Assembly: GCA_019057865.1 (NCBI GenBank)
Contig: JAHLWP010000051.1
Span: 1 to 22,589, forward strand
Length of the DNA stretch: 22,589 nt
From: Promethearchaeota archaeon
GTDB lineage: Archaea; Asgardarchaeota; Lokiarchaeia; Sigyniarchaeales; SOKP01
Direction: 5' to 3'
Positions 343-7,941 of the stretch are shown in pieces. A program made the position numbers and the translations under genes. Numbering within the stretch: the stretch's first letter is position 1; every line of letters begins with the position of its first letter. Below the pieces are notes generated by a model, which saw only the letters and a list, made by a program, of their open reading frames with translations, had not been told where the DNA came from and ran no database searches.

Positions 343-3300
343 ATGGGAGAATTAGCAGATGAGACTGACGAGGAATTTAATAGTGGATTTCATGAGATGG
401 AGGAAGTAACGGATGAGGAGATTGATAAGGAATTTGATGAGCAATTTAATGAGGTGGAAGAGGAATATGAAAATATCGGCTCTCAAAGTACTGTATTAAT
501 GCATGAAAATCCCGAAATAGAAGGAGAAAATCAGGAAGAACTTCAAGCTGAAAGTGAGGAATATACTGAGGAGGAAGAGGAGTACCTAGAGAATGAGGAA
601 GAAGCAATAGAGATAGATCCAGAAGAATACGAAAATGACCAAGATCCTATTATTGATACCGAAGAGATAGAATTTGTTAGGGATATGGAAGAATTGGGGC
701 GCATGCTGAAAGAATATGATGAGAAGTTAGGCTATCCTGAAGAAGAAAATGATAATACTGCTTTTAATGCAGAGCAAGCTTATAGGGAAATTAAAGAAAG
801 AAATAGTAATAAAGAAGAAAAGGAAGAGGCCCAAGAATTAGAGGAACAAGAAAAAGAAATTACAGAAGATCAGAAGGAAGAGCATATTGAGGAAATACTT
901 TCTGGTGATGCACAAGGGGAAGATGTCAATGATACATCAGAAGAAGCAGAGATAGAGCCAGAAGAGTTTGATTATCTTTGGGAAAAATATGAACAGTATG
1001 AACAAGAAGGGAAGAATTCTGAAGAAATCAGTAATTTAATGCATGAGGCAGAAGAAACTTATAAACTCTTAAAAAATGTTGAAAAGCTCTATGAACAACA
1101 AGAAAAAGAAAAATTAAAGTCAATTGACCATGAAGATGAAGAAGATAACGATGATGTAAGAGAACAGATTGATCGAGTAGATGCAGTAGAATATTTTGTA
1201 GATTTTGAAGAAAAATTACACCAGCAAGGAAAATCTCAAGGAGAAATTGACGAGCAGGTGGAAGAAATTGCGAAGGATTTCTTCTTAAGTGAAATAGAAG
1301 AAAAACAACAAAATGAACAAGAAAAAGATGTGAGTGAAGAACTTAGAATCGAACAAGCTGGAACTGATGAAATAAACTCAGATCTAAAAGAACAGGAACA
1401 GATTAAACAAATCTCTGTTTATGATAACGATGACAATAGAAAAACTCATGAAGAAGTGGAAAAAAAAGAAGCAGAAGAAGAGATCAAAACAGAATTAAAT
1501 GATATAGAAACTGATGATGTGGAACCATATCACGAAAGAATCAATGAATCCATTGAGAAAGAAGACAAGCTAGAGAGTAAAGAAACAGAAGAAGAAGAAT
1601 ATAAAAAGCTTCAGCAATTATATCGCCAAGAAACTGGTAAAAGACCTATGTATGCTGGAACGGAGACAAAAGGATTTAACCAATGGTTAGAAAAACAAGA
1701 ATTAAAAACTAAAGAGTTAGAAGAGAAAGAACAAAAAAAGGAGAAATGGCAAAAGAAACTTAAAAACTGGATAGAAGGATCTAACGAAGAAGAGCTCAGC
1801 TCTGAACTTAAAGTAGTTTTGAAAGAGATACTTCAAAATTTTCAAGAATATGAAAAATTAGAAGAATTATATAAAAGATATGAAAAAGGAGAATTAACTG
1901 AAAAAAATAAAGAAGTGTTGAATTTCATTATAAACAAACTATTAAATATAAGCCCTATTCACTTACATTTATATTTGAATATAAGCGGATTTAAAGCGTA
2001 TTATCAAGAACATCATTGGTGGAATCCCGCGCTTATTAATGAAATAAAATATAAATTTCTCAGACATCTGTCCAAAAAATATGAAGTCTTAAAAAAACAC
2101 TCAAAAAATATATCTAAACTTAAACAACTTCATGCTAAGCACATTCGAAAATTAGTTGATAGACCACATTCAATCAAGGAGAATATTAAATTAACTCAGA
2201 ATAATTTGAAGGACTTTTTAAAGGAAAATTTGGAAAATATAAATGAATTGAATGAAAATCAGAAATCAATTTTAGTTGAAAATCGAAATTCAATGATTCA
2301 AGGGCAGAACTCAAAATTTTCTGAGGATGAAATTAGATTTTTTAAAAATCATAATATTAATTGGAGAATGTTAGGATCTAGATGGGATTGGGTTAAAAGA
2401 AACCTTTTGATTCCATTTTTCTTGGAGATTTTATATGTAAAGAATAATAGGGTTCCTAAGACTAAAGAAATTGAAAATTGGGGTTATGGACGATTTTTAA
2501 AAATTTTAAGAGAAAAATATAGCTTAACTTTCTCAAAACTTGTAGAAAAGGCGGGTATAGCCCCACGAAAAAGCTTGAAAAAAGAAAAAAATTTTTCGAA
2601 TGATGAGAAAAAATTTTTAATTAATCATGAAGTTAAAATTGAAAATTTAAATACAAGATGGGAATGGGTTAGACTAAATCCTGAATTAGCAATTGATTTT
2701 TATGAGGAAATTTTATTTCCGAAATATGGTCGAAGCCCCACTTCAAGAGAAATAAAAAAATTAGGTTATGGGCAATTTATTGAAATACTACGAGATATGG
2801 GATTAACCCTTTCAAATTTGGCTGAAAGAGCCGGTTTTAGACCAAGAAATTCTTATGAAAGGGTGATTAATTCAGATGACTTAACAGATAAAGAAATCGA
2901 GTTTCTGGAGCGTCATAACATCAAGCTTAGTGATTTGACATCTAGATGGTCCTGGTTAGATGATGATCCAGATCTAGCGATGAATTTCTTTAAAGAAGTA
3001 ATTTATCGACTGCATAATAAAGTTCCTACTTGGGATGAGATTGCTTATTCAAATTATTATAATTTTGTTCAAAAACTTAGTACTTTCAATCTAACATATC
3101 CAGAACTTATAAAATTATCAGGATTTGAACCAAATTATGAATTTTTAAATGAAAATGATAAGACGATCATATATGATTTGATGGAAAGATTTGTGAATGA
3201 ATATTTCGAATCAGGTCAAGAGATTTATCCTCCATCTTTATCGTATTTAGTTAAATACGGACCATTAAAGGTTAGTGATGCTACTTTCAGTCATTATGCA

Positions 3301-4887
3301 AAAGAATATTTAATAGGTAGATTTGGAGTTCAAGAAGGTGAAAAAATTTATTCAGAATTTTGGCCACATTTATCTGCTGGATTATCTAGTGAGAAAATAT
3401 CAATGGTTTACGATTATACTGAAGAATTCGTAAATAATTTTTTAGATTCTAAAAAATTGCCACTACCAATTATTCATATAACTAAACATTTAATTCCAAA
3501 TATTTCTAGTCATACATTTTCTAAATATGCTCAAGAATATCTTAATAAGCGATTTGGTGTTGTTAGAAGCCAGAATCTCTATGAGAAAATGTGGCCATAT
3601 GATCTTTTAGTAGCTAATACAGGAACTTTAGTTCACAGAATAATTAATGAACTTTTAACTATATATTTTAAAAATTATCAAGAAATTAAATATTTTAGTG
3701 TTCCCGTTATTTATCCTACAAGAAAACCTGATGGGTTAATACTTAAATCAAGGAAACTTATTTCATTACTTAAAGCAAATGAGAATATTTTACATAAAAT
3801 AAATTTAGATATTAATATCTTAAATAAGGTTAAAGCAATTGTTTTTGATTTTACCTCAGATGTTTCACAACGAAATATCATGGATAAGATTATTAAATAT
3901 CAACATCCTGATCTTTTCCTTTTTATTATCGGAGTTAGATGGTATTATGATATTCCATATTTAAAAGTTCCAGAAGATAGAGGTGTAATAGGCAAAAAAA
4001 AAATTAAAATTATTAGTATTGAGGATTTTTGTGAACTATTTTCAATACCTTTGGAATTAATTCAAGAATTGGAAAGTATATTAAAGTTGGCAATTGATCG
4101 GGATATTGATTCTTTAAGTAAAATAAGCCTTTTGGAAAATGAAGAGTTATATAATACAGATTCTCTGCACGCTGAGCTTATTCAAAATGGAAAAATCAAA
4201 GAAAATATTCAAGAATTTTTGGATCTAGGTTTGATTAATCATCCAATTAAGAATATTTTTACAAAATCAGAACTAGAATATATAGAGAGTTGTAGAAATA
4301 TTGATCATAAAATAGCTATTATTGATATTGAGACAACGGGTTTCAATCCATTGAAAGATAGTATAGTTGAAATAGGGATTGTTGAATTAGATTTAAGTAC
4401 AGGAGAAAAAAAGATTTTATTCAATTCAGTTGTTAAGGATTCAAATTACAATTCATCAAAATATTATAATAATCTCTTTTTGAAAGATATTAGTATAGAT
4501 CCTATAGAGATTGAAAAAGCAAGACCTTTAGAATTTTATAGAGACATCCTTCAATTGATCTTTAATTGCTATAAGATTACTGCTTATAATAATAGATTTG
4601 ATTTTAGATTTTTGGAAAATAGAGGTTTTAACATTCCAAGAAAATTAATGGATATAATGAATTTTTGTCAACGAAAAATACCTAAAGGAAATAGTCTTAA
4701 ATTTGAGGAAGTTTATCGATATTTTTATAATACTCCTCAAAATAAGATAAAAGAAATTTTATCCAATCCAAATTATGTTTCATTACATAGAGCAATTGAT
4801 GATGTAATTCATGAAACTGAGCTCCTCTTTTATTTAATTCAGGAATCTAATTTTCCATTAACTTATCAAAAAAAACTTTTTTTATAG
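343..4887 (+). CDS. Large multidomain protein: Glu-rich N-terminus, helical repeats, PD-(D/E)XK-like domain, C-terminal DEDDh 3'-5' exonuclease (DnaQ-like); true start may be 232
   Basis: 1514-aa ORF. ExoI motif IAIIDIETTG, ExoII AYNNRFD, ExoIII HRAIDD. GTLVH...RKPDG...VFDFT resembles a restriction-fold nuclease. Three ~92-aa and two ~78-aa internal repeats. Confidence 0.8.
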   Translation: MGELADETDEEFNSGFHEMEEVTDEEIDKEFDEQFNEVEEEYENIGSQSTVLMHENPEIEGENQEELQAESEEYTEEEEEYLENEEEAIEIDPEEYENDQDPIIDTEEIEFVRDMEELGRMLKEYDEKLGYPEEENDNTAFNAEQAYREIKERNSNKEEKEEAQELEEQEKEITEDQKEEHIEEILSGDAQGEDVNDTSEEAEIEPEEFDYLWEKYEQYEQEGKNSEEISNLMHEAEETYKLLKNVEKLYEQQEKEKLKSIDHEDEEDNDDVREQIDRVDAVEYFVDFEEKLHQQGKSQGEIDEQVEEIAKDFFLSEIEEKQQNEQEKDVSEELRIEQAGTDEINSDLKEQEQIKQISVYDNDDNRKTHEEVEKKEAEEEIKTELNDIETDDVEPYHERINESIEKEDKLESKETEEEEYKKLQQLYRQETGKRPMYAGTETKGFNQWLEKQELKTKELEEKEQKKEKWQKKLKNWIEGSNEEELSSELKVVLKEILQNFQEYEKLEELYKRYEKGELTEKNKEVLNFIINKLLNISPIHLHLYLNISGFKAYYQEHHWWNPALINEIKYKFLRHLSKKYEVLKKHSKNISKLKQLHAKHIRKLVDRPHSIKENIKLTQNNLKDFLKENLENINELNENQKSILVENRNSMIQGQNSKFSEDEIRFFKNHNINWRMLGSRWDWVKRNLLIPFFLEILYVKNNRVPKTKEIENWGYGRFLKILREKYSLTFSKLVEKAGIAPRKSLKKEKNFSNDEKKFLINHEVKIENLNTRWEWVRLNPELAIDFYEEILFPKYGRSPTSREIKKLGYGQFIEILRDMGLTLSNLAERAGFRPRNSYERVINSDDLTDKEIEFLERHNIKLSDLTSRWSWLDDDPDLAMNFFKEVIYRLHNKVPTWDEIAYSNYYNFVQKLSTFNLTYPELIKLSGFEPNYEFLNENDKTIIYDLMERFVNEYFESGQEIYPPSLSYLVKYGPLKVSDATFSHYAKEYLIGRFGVQEGEKIYSEFWPHLSAGLSSEKISMVYDYTEEFVNNFLDSKKLPLPIIHITKHLIPNISSHTFSKYAQEYLNKRFGVVRSQNLYEKMWPYDLLVANTGTLVHRIINELLTIYFKNYQEIKYFSVPVIYPTRKPDGLILKSRKLISLLKANENILHKINLDINILNKVKAIVFDFTSDVSQRNIMDKIIKYQHPDLFLFIIGVRWYYDIPYLKVPEDRGVIGKKKIKIISIEDFCELFSIPLELIQELESILKLAIDRDIDSLSKISLLENEELYNTDSLHAELIQNGKIKENIQEFLDLGLINHPIKNIFTKSELEYIESCRNIDHKIAIIDIETTGFNPLKDSIVEIGIVELDLSTGEKKILFNSVVKDSNYNSSKYYNNLFLKDISIDPIEIEKARPLEFYRDILQLIFNCYKITAYNNRFDFRFLENRGFNIPRKLMDIMNFCQRKIPKGNSLKFEEVYRYFYNTPQNKIKEILSNPNYVSLHRAIDDVIHETELLFYLIQESNFPLTYQKKLFL

Positions 4888-5001
4888 AAAAATATTCTTA
4901 ATCTTTCTTAAGAAAAAATTCTTATTACTTCTATTATTAGGAAAAATTAATTAAGAAAAATTAAGAAGAGGAAATATAAGAAAAGTAATGGTTGAAGAAA
5001 A

Positions 5002-7941
5002 ATGATCGATTACGATCCACAAAAAATTGAAGAAAAATGGCAAAATAGATGGGAAAGCGATAAAATCTTTAAAGTAACTGAAAATTCGAAGAAAAAAAGT
5101 TATTATGTACTAGAGATGTATCCATACCCCTCTGGAAAGCTCCACATGGGACATTTAAGAAATTATACTATTGGAGATTGCATTGCTAGGTATAAAAGAA
5201 TGCAAGGTTTCAATGTTCTTTATCCAATGGGTTATGATTCCTTTGGTATGCCAGCAGAATCAAAATGTATATCACATTATGCTGTATAATGCAGCCATTG
5301 AAGAGGGAGCTAACCCAGAAGTTTGGACAAATAGTAATATTGAAATAATGTGTTCACAGCAAAAAAGGCTTGGTTTATCATATGATTGGGATCGAGTTTT
5401 ATGGTCCCACCAGAAGAGTTATTACAAATTTGACCAATGGTTCTTTTTGAAAATGTATGAACGTGGTTTGGCTTATAGACAAGAGAGCTATGTAAATTGG
5501 TGCCCAAAATGTGCAACTGTACTTGCTAATGAACAAGCAAGCGGAGGAAGATGTTGGCGTTGTAATACTGTTGTAGATATAAAATTACAACAAACATGGT
5601 TCTTAAAAATCAGAGAGTACGCAGATCAACTCCTTAAAGGCTTAGAAACTTTAGAATGGCCAGAAAATGTTAAAACAATGCAGCGTAAATTAAATCAATG
5701 CCTCTTCGGCATATGAGCGCCCTTGGATTGGTTATTCTGAAGGAACTGTCATTATGTTCCAAATAGTTGGAGAAAATAAGACTATTAATATCTTCACAAC
5801 TCGACCTGATACTGTTTATGGAGTATCTTTTATGGTCTTTGCCCCAGAGCATCCTTGGGTTCGTGAGTGGATCCAAGGAACTGAATATGAAGAGGATTTC
5901 AAAAAACTTTACGATGAAATAATTCATCAAGGGAGATATGAGAGAACTGATATTGAAATTGAAAAGAAGGGAATATTCACTGGAAAATATTGTTTCCATC
6001 CATTGATAAAAGATTTAAAAATTCCAATCTATATTGGTAACTTCGTATTTTGTATCAGTTTCTGATATAAAAGGAAAATTTACGAATATGGAGCAGGAGC
6101 AGTAATGGCTGTACCAGCACACGACCAATTTTGTAAGAATTCCTTACAAAGGTTATAGAGATTTTGAATTTGCGAGAAAATACCATATTCCGATAAAACA
6201 AGTTATACAACCTTTTGCTTATAAATTACCTGCTGATACAAATAAATGGAATCGTGCATATGAAGGAGACGGATTTTTAATTAATTCCTCAAGTAATAAA
6301 AGTGATTTCAATAACCTTGATAATCGCAATGCAATAGAAAAAATCACAAATAGATTAGAAGAAATTGATGCAGGTTATGGAACGGTCAACTATAAATTAC
6401 GCGACTGGGGGATATCCCGCCAAAGATATTGGGGCTGTCCGATACCAATAATATATTGCAAAAATTGTGGTAGAGTGCCTGTTCCTTATGAAGATCTTCC
6501 TGTTTCACTCCCAGATGATGTTGATTTCTCAAAAGGAGGGAATCCCTTAGAAACTAGTGAGAGTTTCATAAATGTGAAATGTCCTAAATGCGAAAAATTA
6601 GGAGCGAAACGTGAAACTGATACCATGGATACATTTGTAGATAGTTCATGGTATTTCTTTAGATATTGTGATCCTGATTCGAGAGATATACCTTATAGAA
6701 AAAAAATCTTAGACTATTGGGGTAAAGGTACCTTTCTTGTTGATCAATATATAGGTGGAATAGAACATGCGATATTACATTTGATATATGCTAGATTTTG
6801 GACAAAAGTAGCGAGAGATCTTGAATTGCATAGTTTTGATGAACCATTCAGGCGTTTATTGACACAGGGGATGATTAATAAGGCGCATCCTTTTTGTACT
6901 AACTGTAATAGACACATAATGAGAGCAGAACTTAAGGAGATGATGTGCAAACGATGTGGGAATAAAAATTTAACATTGAAATCTGTAAAAATGAGTAAAA
7001 GCTATGGAAATACTGTAGAGCCTAAGGAAATAGTAGATAAATATGGAGCTGATGCTGCTAGGTTTTTTATTTTATTCGGAGCAAGTCCTGAATCTGGCTT
7101 AGAATGGTCAGATGAAGGTGTTGGGTTTGCAAATAAATTCATAAAAAACACATTTTCAATGCTAGTTGATCCTCCTGAGATTAAAAGAAAAGAAAAAACT
7201 ATTCGAGATACTCTTGTAAAATATATTTTAAACAAAACGATAAAGCTAGTTACTAATAATTTTGAAAAAATATCAATTAGAGACGCTGTAAACAATATAA
7301 TACAATTCGCTTCTGAATTTAATAAATATAAAAATGAAGGTGTAGTTGAAGAAATTTTTGAAGAATGTAGAGAAAAATTACTTTTAATACTCCATCCAAT
7401 TATCCCTCATATCACTGAAGAAATCTGGGAAATCATTGGTAAAAAAGGATTTATTAGTTTAGCTTCATGGCCTTCTTACAATAAAGAATTAATTACTCTT
7501 GAAAATGATTTCAAATGGAAGTTAATAAACAATATTTTAGATGATATTAACAATATTAAAACTGTTATAAGAAAAGAAGAATTAGATAAAATTTCAATTA
7601 TTATAGCGGATGAATGGAAATATAGATTCTATAAACAGCTATTATCATTGATTAATGAAACCAAAAATCAAGGTGAAATTATAAAAACACTCATGCAAAA
7701 AGATTACTTAAAGCCTCATAGTAAGTTCATAAGTCAAATCATCACAAAAGTTTTAAAAAATGTAGGAAAGTATCCAAAATTCACTCTTACAACAAATGAG
7801 GAATACAATTTTTTTCAGGATATTAAATCAATGATCATGAAAAAATATAACTGCGAGGTTGAAATTTTAATTGAGAAAGATTCGAATGCACAAAAAGCAA
7901 TTCAATCTCTTCCAGGAAAACCTGCTATTATCATTACATAA
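5002..7941 (+). CDS. leuS: Leucine--tRNA ligase interrupted by four putative BHB micro-introns; join(5002-5259,5288-5688,5723-6047,6078-6128,6157-7941), 939 aa
   Basis: Motifs [12 protein letters not shown] (HIGH), [20 protein letters not shown] (CP1 editing), [37 protein letters not shown] and KMSKS. Joined exons total 2820 nt (940 codons) with no internal stop. Confidence 0.93.
5260..5287 (+). other. Putative BHB-type mRNA micro-intron 1 of leuS (28 nt)
   Basis: Removal restores FGMPAE^NAAI. Central helix GCAG(5254-57)/CUGU(5282-85), bulges AA^U and AU^A, intron stem CAAAAUGU/ACAUUAUG (7 of 8 paired). Exon-exon helix is relaxed. Confidence 0.85.
5689..5722 (+). other. Putative BHB-type mRNA micro-intron 2 of leuS (34 nt)
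   Basis: Removal restores TMQRNWIG (codon AA^T). Central helix GCGU(5683-86)/GCGC(5717-20), bulges AA^A and CC^U, exon helix CAAUGCA/UGGAUUG (6 of 7 paired), intron hairpin AUGCC-UCUUC-GGCAU. Confidence 0.88.
6048..6077 (+). other. Putative BHB-type mRNA micro-intron 3 of leuS (30 nt, in frame, contains TGA)
   Basis: Removal restores GNFV^IYEYGAG. Intron stem 6049-58/6062-71 (10 pairs), central helix UUCG/AGGA (3 of 4 paired), bulges UA^U and AA^A, long exon-exon helix 6028-40/6080-92. Confidence 0.82.
6129..6156 (+). other. Putative BHB-type mRNA micro-intron 4 of leuS (28 nt)
   Basis: Removal restores PAHDQ^RDFEFA. Central helix GACC(6123-26)/GGUU(6151-54), bulges AA^U and AU^A, perfect 8-bp intron stem UUUGUAAG/CUUACAAA. 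Confidence 0.9.

Follow-up and report, generated by a model that had tools for sequence, protein, structure and literature searches.

A 22,589-nt window of contig JAHLWP010000051.1 (assembly GCA_019057865.1, a Promethearchaeota archaeon of the Asgardarchaeota, genome G000 below) contains a gene for a bacterial-type leucyl-tRNA synthetase (LeuRS), leuS_bact, at positions 5002-7941. The gene is divided into five exons by four inserts of the bulge-helix-bulge (BHB) type; gene and inserts lie on the forward strand, and the inserts were delimited by tblastn against an intact relative. The second insert, 34 nt at 5689-5722, appears to be a real archaeal BHB pre-mRNA intron situated within the coding sequence, a reading to which we assign a probability of roughly 0.85. 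It is favoured because the borders of the insert, which were set by protein alignment independently of any RNA structure, coincide with the canonical cut sites of a BHB motif. Given that the insert has the form recognized by the tRNA-splicing enzyme and retains it in related strains, the leuS mRNA is very probably cut and re-joined at intron 2.

The frame of leuS is interrupted four times, between GMPAE and NAAI, around the Asn of MQR-N-WIG, between GNFV and IYEYG, and between AHDQ and RDFEF, and the uninterrupted relative used as the tblastn query aligned without loss over all four breaks. The exons match Pfam PF00133, PF13603 and PF08264 as well as NCBIfam TIGR00396, with the Pfam domains in the correct order (tRNA-synt_1, LeuRS editing domain, anticodon-binding domain). 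TIGR00396 is the best family match for exon 2 (181 bits) and exon 5 (417 bits), its whole-protein cut-off being out of reach for single exons. Once spliced, the open reading frame (ORF) is intact and 939 aa long, whereas translation of the unspliced mRNA would stop after 95 codons. At intron 2, exon 2 ends in ...VKTMQR and exon 3 begins with WIGYSEG in a different frame. Because only the join of AA (5687-5688) to T5723 yields the invariant Asn, the insert is fixed at 5689-5722, in agreement with the first-pass annotation, which had described a 34-nt phase-2 insertion splitting this Asn codon (AA/T) in QRNWIG. The motif MQRNWIG is contiguous in 55 relatives without the intron, and the break coincides with a domain boundary, at position 3 in the profile of the editing domain.

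These features sit poorly with separately translated pieces that would form a split LeuRS, or with a palindromic selfish repeat tolerated in the protein. Although split aminoacyl-tRNA synthetases and palindromic inserts that stay in frame are known elsewhere, exon 4 alone would be a peptide of 17 residues, a length of 34 nt is not divisible by three, the frame shifts after the insert, and the Asn codon itself is split. Intron 2 moreover has no sequence similarity to introns 1, 3 and 4, as an earlier remark had it, or to anything elsewhere in G000. Explanations of this kind are accordingly highly improbable.

The RNA around the insert can be drawn as a complete BHB. The outer helix h pairs CAAUGCA in exon 2 (5676-5682; invariant in orthologs) with UGGAUUG in exon 3 (5724-5730), which encodes W-I-G; it has 6/7 pairs, arranged as 2+4 bp around a G.G mismatch (5680/5726). 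The central helix H pairs GCGU at the end of exon 2 (5683-5686) with GCGC in the intron (5717-5720), all 4/4 positions being paired and one of them a U.G. All three helices named by the first-pass annotation are therefore present, although its description of the exon helix as CAAUGCA/UGGAUUG leaves the mismatch unmentioned. The bulges are AAA (5687-5689) and CCU (5721-5723). The intron holds, besides its strand of H, the helix h', formed by UUA (5690-5692) and UGA (5714-5716) as 3 bp that include a U.G in the window copy, and a hairpin at 5698-5712 with the stem AUGCC/GGCAU (5698-5702/5708-5712). This hairpin had been noted as GC-rich within AT-rich DNA, and indeed the G+C content of intron 2 is 47% vs 29% for the genome. 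The motif thus comprises a 4-bp central helix between two opposite 3-nt bulges, with h and h' each of at least 2 bp, and a cut after the second base of both bulges restores the Asn codon AAU of MQRNWIG and the frame. In G000 an equally strict motif occurs with a frequency of about 2.5e-5 for a fixed pair of position and length, and for intron 2 that pair was given beforehand by the protein alignment. The same cut register is found in the genome's tRNA-Thr(UGU), the intron of which falls at the canonical 37/38 with h 6/6 and H 4/4; this check is a rough one, as ARAGORN intron calls are inexact and only some of the tRNAs gave a clean BHB. An Rfam search of the region matched no family. The idea that the CGU Arg codon, which looks rare, co-evolved with intron 2 was rejected, CGN being common at this place in intron-less relatives.

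Orthologs of intron 2 were found on 12 contigs, drawn from nine assemblies or sequencing runs other than that of the window (NCBI, ENA, JGI, Logan; the loci include L071, L073 and L076); these contigs bear a group of exon-2 ORFs in the protein collection with an identity of 91% or more. All 12/12 contigs carry a 34-nt insert at the identical site, in five sequence versions in all, and share the gene order RNase_T-domain protein, leuS, 288-aa protein and triosephosphate isomerase. An assembly or sequencing artefact, which a metagenome-assembled bin with an estimated 5% contamination (and 99.7% completeness) might otherwise bring to mind, is excluded for practical purposes because independent NCBI, ENA, JGI and Logan assemblies hold the same insert with sequence variants. 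As for the pairing, the comparison of leuS orthologs that the first-pass annotation had proposed, for presence of the insert and for compensatory changes, bears out its strict BHB: 18/18 pairs are standard in each of the five versions (90 cells, 100% paired), whereas control structures slid by 1-3 columns are 20-41% paired. One double change, C-G to U-A at the fourth hairpin pair, compensates on both sides. Two further changes are one-sided and compatible with pairing: in helix H the U.G becomes U-A in L073, and in h' the window copy has a U.G where all other versions have C-G. The six other variable columns of the alignment are all unpaired, and the first base of the 3' bulge varies between C and U, as expected of an unpaired position. 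The strict BHB is also the minimum-free-energy (MFE) fold in 3/5 versions, and the alternative pairing of the window copy is not conserved. Since shuffle statistics are weak with five versions, the covariation is best regarded as consistent with the structure, not as proof of it.

A further line of evidence concerns the product. When the BHB inserts are removed, a gap-free 939-aa ORF results in four alleles, those of the window, L076, L073 and L071, which carry 4 inserts each except for L071 with 8, and only BHB-shaped inserts account for the length differences among them. Pairwise dN/dS among the four spliced alleles is 0.16-0.25 at dS 0.45-0.8, which points to a spliced leuS product that is under purifying selection. 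Intron 1 is likewise kept in L071, L073 and L076, with a compensatory double change (U-A to C-G) in its h', and for introns 1, 3 and 4 alike position and length are kept in relatives and the substitutions are compatible with pairing.

Several observations nevertheless weigh against a spliced intron in a working gene. The MFE fold of the window copy (-15.3 kcal/mol) uses UCA at 5695-5697, not UUA at 5690-5692, and so opens an 8-nt 5' bulge; the strict BHB, at -11.7 kcal/mol, is 3.6 kcal/mol less stable than this alternative, and the window fold is unexceptional against shuffles (z -1.27). Because the alternative with the 8-nt bulge is favoured and the fold is unremarkable, the label "strict" is arguable from the window sequence alone. 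The observed covariation score was matched by 51/500 shuffles, with five versions and one double change behind it. For a synthetase the dN/dS values are a little on the high side, and among alleles the identity of LeuRS drops to only 46-53% in its C-terminal third. Neither a spliced nor an intron-less protein of the window allele was found in the protein collection: the search with exon 2 for longer proteins returned a best full-length match of 76% identity, and the near-neighbour search with exon 3 returned only unspliced exon ORFs. Finally, G000 encodes another LeuRS, an uninterrupted archaeal-type enzyme of 962 aa (contig C1:28363-31251, locus L165; TIGR00395, 937 bits). Its presence in the same genome means that the bacterial-type leuS, as the second LeuRS, need not be essential, and essentiality should not be assumed.

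It is on this archaeal-type LeuRS that the view of leuS as a decaying pseudogene with four junk inserts would draw, leucine charging then being left to the archaeal-type enzyme; the long branch of the intron-bearing clade and its very divergent C-terminal region could be cited in the same sense. However, gap-free 939-aa ORFs and a dN/dS of 0.16-0.25 would not persist in a pseudogene at the divergence seen among the four alleles, nor would one expect inserts of BHB shape to be the sole source of length change while keeping their exact length and pairing, and decay is therefore very unlikely. The discrepancy between the MFE fold of the window and the strict BHB might instead suggest that the insert is removed or skipped in another way, by some other RNase, by self-cleavage, or by ribosomal bypassing of the kind known from T4 gene 60, without the tRNA-intron endonuclease EndA and the ligase RtcB. 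Yet the features that are conserved are exactly those that EndA needs, namely a helix of 4 bp, a pair of 3-nt bulges and the helices that flank them. A codon split as AA/U over 34 nt would be unreadable for a bypassing ribosome, and matched take-off and landing codons are absent; self-splicing is opposed by a length far below that of group I or II introns and by the lack of an Rfam match. Removal by such routes is improbable, if a little less so than decay of the gene, and a BHB intron handled by EndA and RtcB remains the better account.

Both enzymes are encoded in G000. There are two PF01974 tRNA-intron endonuclease (EndA) paralogues, at C71:81560-82162 and C69:38262-38885, of which the alpha-like subunit has the Tyr/His/Lys catalytic residues and the beta-like subunit has Asp where the catalytic His is expected, as aligned by eye on the ORF translations; RtcB is present (C75:110910-112217) and scores 561 bits. 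Asgard EndA has been reported to have the (alpha-beta)2 form with a broad-specificity loop (PMC5829648). ARAGORN recognized only 18 tRNA genes in G000, 12 of them with introns, of 11-61 nt. Most tRNA genes of this genome are probably too interrupted for recognition, and the low count agrees with the heavy interruption that has been described for Asgard tRNA genes (bioRxiv 10.64898/2026.10.13.758758). From these genes and from the structure we infer cleavage and ligation as follows. In the pre-mRNA, the exon stretch 5676-5686 would form pairs both with 5717-5720 in the intron and with 5724-5730 in the next exon, and these pairings, together with the intron helix 5690-5692/5714-5716, would give the h-B-H-B-h' fold. 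An alpha/beta heterotetrameric EndA would then cleave after 5688 (AA/A), which leaves AA to open the Asn codon, and after 5722 (CC/U), so that U5723 can complete AAU. Ligation of the exons by RtcB would recreate the Asn codon of MQRNWIG at the start of the editing domain, with the predicted mRNA junction CGUAA/UUGGAUUGG and the predicted LeuRS peptide TMQRNWIGYSEG across the join, while the 34-nt intron would be released, probably as a circle. Introns 1, 3 and 4 would be removed likewise, the 939-aa enzyme being encoded only by the fully spliced mRNA.

Intron 1 (28 nt, 5260-5287) lies between GMPAE and NAAI and has H GCAG/CUGU with 4/4 pairs, a 5' bulge AAU and an h' with 7/8 pairs, but its h is weak. 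Intron 3 (30 nt, 6048-6077), between GNFV and IYEYG, is in frame with a TGA stop and has an H of 3/4 pairs and an h' of 10 bp, and intron 4 (28 nt, 6129-6156), between AHDQ and RDFEF, has H GACC/GGUU with 4/4 pairs, bulges AAU and AUA, and an h' of 8 bp. There are some resemblances among these three introns: TTTTGTA opens both intron 3 (6048-6054) and intron 4 (6129-6135), and introns 1 and 4 share a length of 28 nt and bulges AAU/AUA (5258-5260/5286-5288 and 6127-6129/6155-6157, respectively). Intron 2 has neither the TTTTGTA start nor the AAU/AUA bulges nor the 28-nt length. A 22-nt stretch of intron 3 finds a 91% match at C71:151839-151860. From this dissimilarity, which holds here, the first-pass annotation took intron 2 to be a separate acquisition, and it may be one; since every carrier of intron 2 also bears introns 1, 3 and 4, presence and absence cannot order the gains of the four.

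In the tree, the clade with introns 1-4 forms a long branch nested inside its genus. At the intron 2 site, the window genome alone has an insert when species genomes are compared (135 from the family, 154 from the order), and none was seen in a protein-guided metagenome scan of 80 loci at 56-74% identity, of which 75 have the contiguous motif, 2 the variant RQRDWIG, and 3 a motif that is unreadable in the fetched stretch. Scanned for as a DNA pattern, the core of intron 2 gave no match in collections of metagenomes and genomes from which near relatives may be missing. Other parts of leuS are interrupted in the family. In 13 genomes of other genera a strict BHB insert of 29-31 nt separates PMGYD from SFG(L/M)PAE (site A; loci L034, L042-L047, L051-L053 and L057-L059), and its removal restores PMGYDSFG(L/M)PAE, L046 alone giving no clean splice. 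Intron 1 was considered as a slid copy of this family-wide intron, which lies 21 nt upstream, and the idea was dropped for want of convincing sequence similarity. A further insert, YYK/WDQWFF, occurs in G123 and G142, and the frame breaks near residue 538 in G063 and G064. With the window clade included, leuS has at least 11 intron sites in the family, and it seems to be a hot spot for BHB introns. The leuS match at L033 (G093:C72) skips reference residues 266 to 372 across only about 107 nt, which could reflect a deletion within the editing domain, a rearrangement on a larger scale or faulty assembly. A genome-wide census of coding BHB introns by ORF joining was not discriminating (804 matches vs 707-791 when the controls were shifted in frame), as the junctions between ordinary neighbouring genes also pass it. 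No endonuclease family was detected in the genes flanking the window leuS, that is, there is no sign of a homing-endonuclease cassette beside it.

Among the alleles, L071:1691-5537 (GCA_019058095.1) was set against window 4900-7941. The flanks are 96-100% identical in nucleotide sequence and the genomes are near-identical, but for most of its length the L071 leuS allele is only about 65-95% identical to that of the window, and it holds eight BHB inserts where the window has four. Behind it lies a 3' leuS remnant, the last ~315 nt of which (window ~7627-7941) are 97-99% window-like, the remnant as a whole being ~82% so. It looks as if a foreign allele richer in introns had replaced the whole gene. 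Between the window and L071 or L073 the divergence along the spliced LeuRS is strongly uneven, in that the C-terminal third (window 7100-7941) is 46-53% identical although the first 200 residues are 90-95% identical, and the gene may be a mosaic. Elsewhere in G000, contig C73:10798-13029 has a truncated, intron-less leuS piece of the first 335 residues, ending in IYEYGALCD followed by a stop. This piece and its upstream flank are 95.5% identical to the genus-mate G012, and the homology ends abruptly within the gene; what is left of a gene, or else a contaminant or chimeric contig, would explain it. Matches similar to the archaeal-type LeuRS of C1, of ~950-1000 aa and so candidates for such an enzyme, turn up in many relatives. 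Upstream of leuS, window positions 343-4887 encode a very acidic protein of 1514 aa without a Pfam match, while for its relatives an RNase_T domain is on record. Because at least seven further contigs (C83, C80, C77, C23, C48, C69 and C63) repeat its first ~600 residues at 60-92% identity, it can be assigned to a multi-copy family.

In the literature searched, BHB splicing inside archaeal coding sequence is documented only for cbf5 (PMC2738675, PMC7714728), the pseudouridine synthase gene with a pre-mRNA BHB intron in Crenarchaeota (Watanabe 2002; Yoshinari 2006; Yokobori 2009, PMC2738675). In both genes a short BHB-bounded intron lies in the coding sequence, the host has a heteromeric (alpha-beta)2 endonuclease, and presence is patchy among relatives, which implies gain and loss. 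However, the gene is here a bacterial-type leuS and the phylum Asgard, and cbf5 has one intron whereas leuS has four and its sister allele eight; moreover, the splicing of cbf5 was shown experimentally, while that of leuS is predicted from sequence. An mRNA is also the substrate of the splicing endonuclease in the case of Haloferax volcanii HVO_1309, although that BHB intron is in the 5' UTR, an untranslated leader outside the coding sequence, unlike leuS intron 2 (PMC7714728). With archaeal tRNA and rRNA BHB introns the leuS introns share the h-B-H-B-h' geometry, the cut register and the size range (11-61 nt for the tRNA introns of G000), and they are presumably processed by the same enzymes. 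In contrast to those introns, the exon half of the leuS motif consists of codons (M-Q-R / W-I-G) and not of a tRNA stem, and the frame must survive the join. A functional parallel exists in eukaryotes, where HAC1/XBP1 mRNA is cut by Ire1 and joined by tRNA ligase or RtcB; this too is protein-only, spliceosome-free splicing of a short, frame-changing mRNA intron that ends with a tRNA ligase. Unlike the endonuclease proposed for leuS, Ire1 recognizes stem-loops and not a BHB, and the HAC1/XBP1 system is regulatory. Intron 2 of leuS is thus best described as a further case of a coding-sequence BHB intron of the cbf5 type.

For leuS intron 2, comparative data show how the motif is built, where the cuts would fall and what selection maintains, and on these one Asgard synthetase gene would need four BHB splices and its sister allele eight. 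Considering the at least 11 leuS intron sites and the sister alleles with 4 vs 8 introns, it is conceivable, at somewhat less than even odds, that BHB introns actively multiply within the protein-coding genes of this Asgard family, with ongoing gain, horizontal spread, and an exchange of entire intron-rich alleles among near-identical genomes that leaves gene remnants. The variation in intron number among very close alleles offers a route to studying intron gain. If BHB introns do multiply in this way, spliceosome-free splicing of pre-mRNA would be routine in the closest prokaryotic relatives of eukaryotes.

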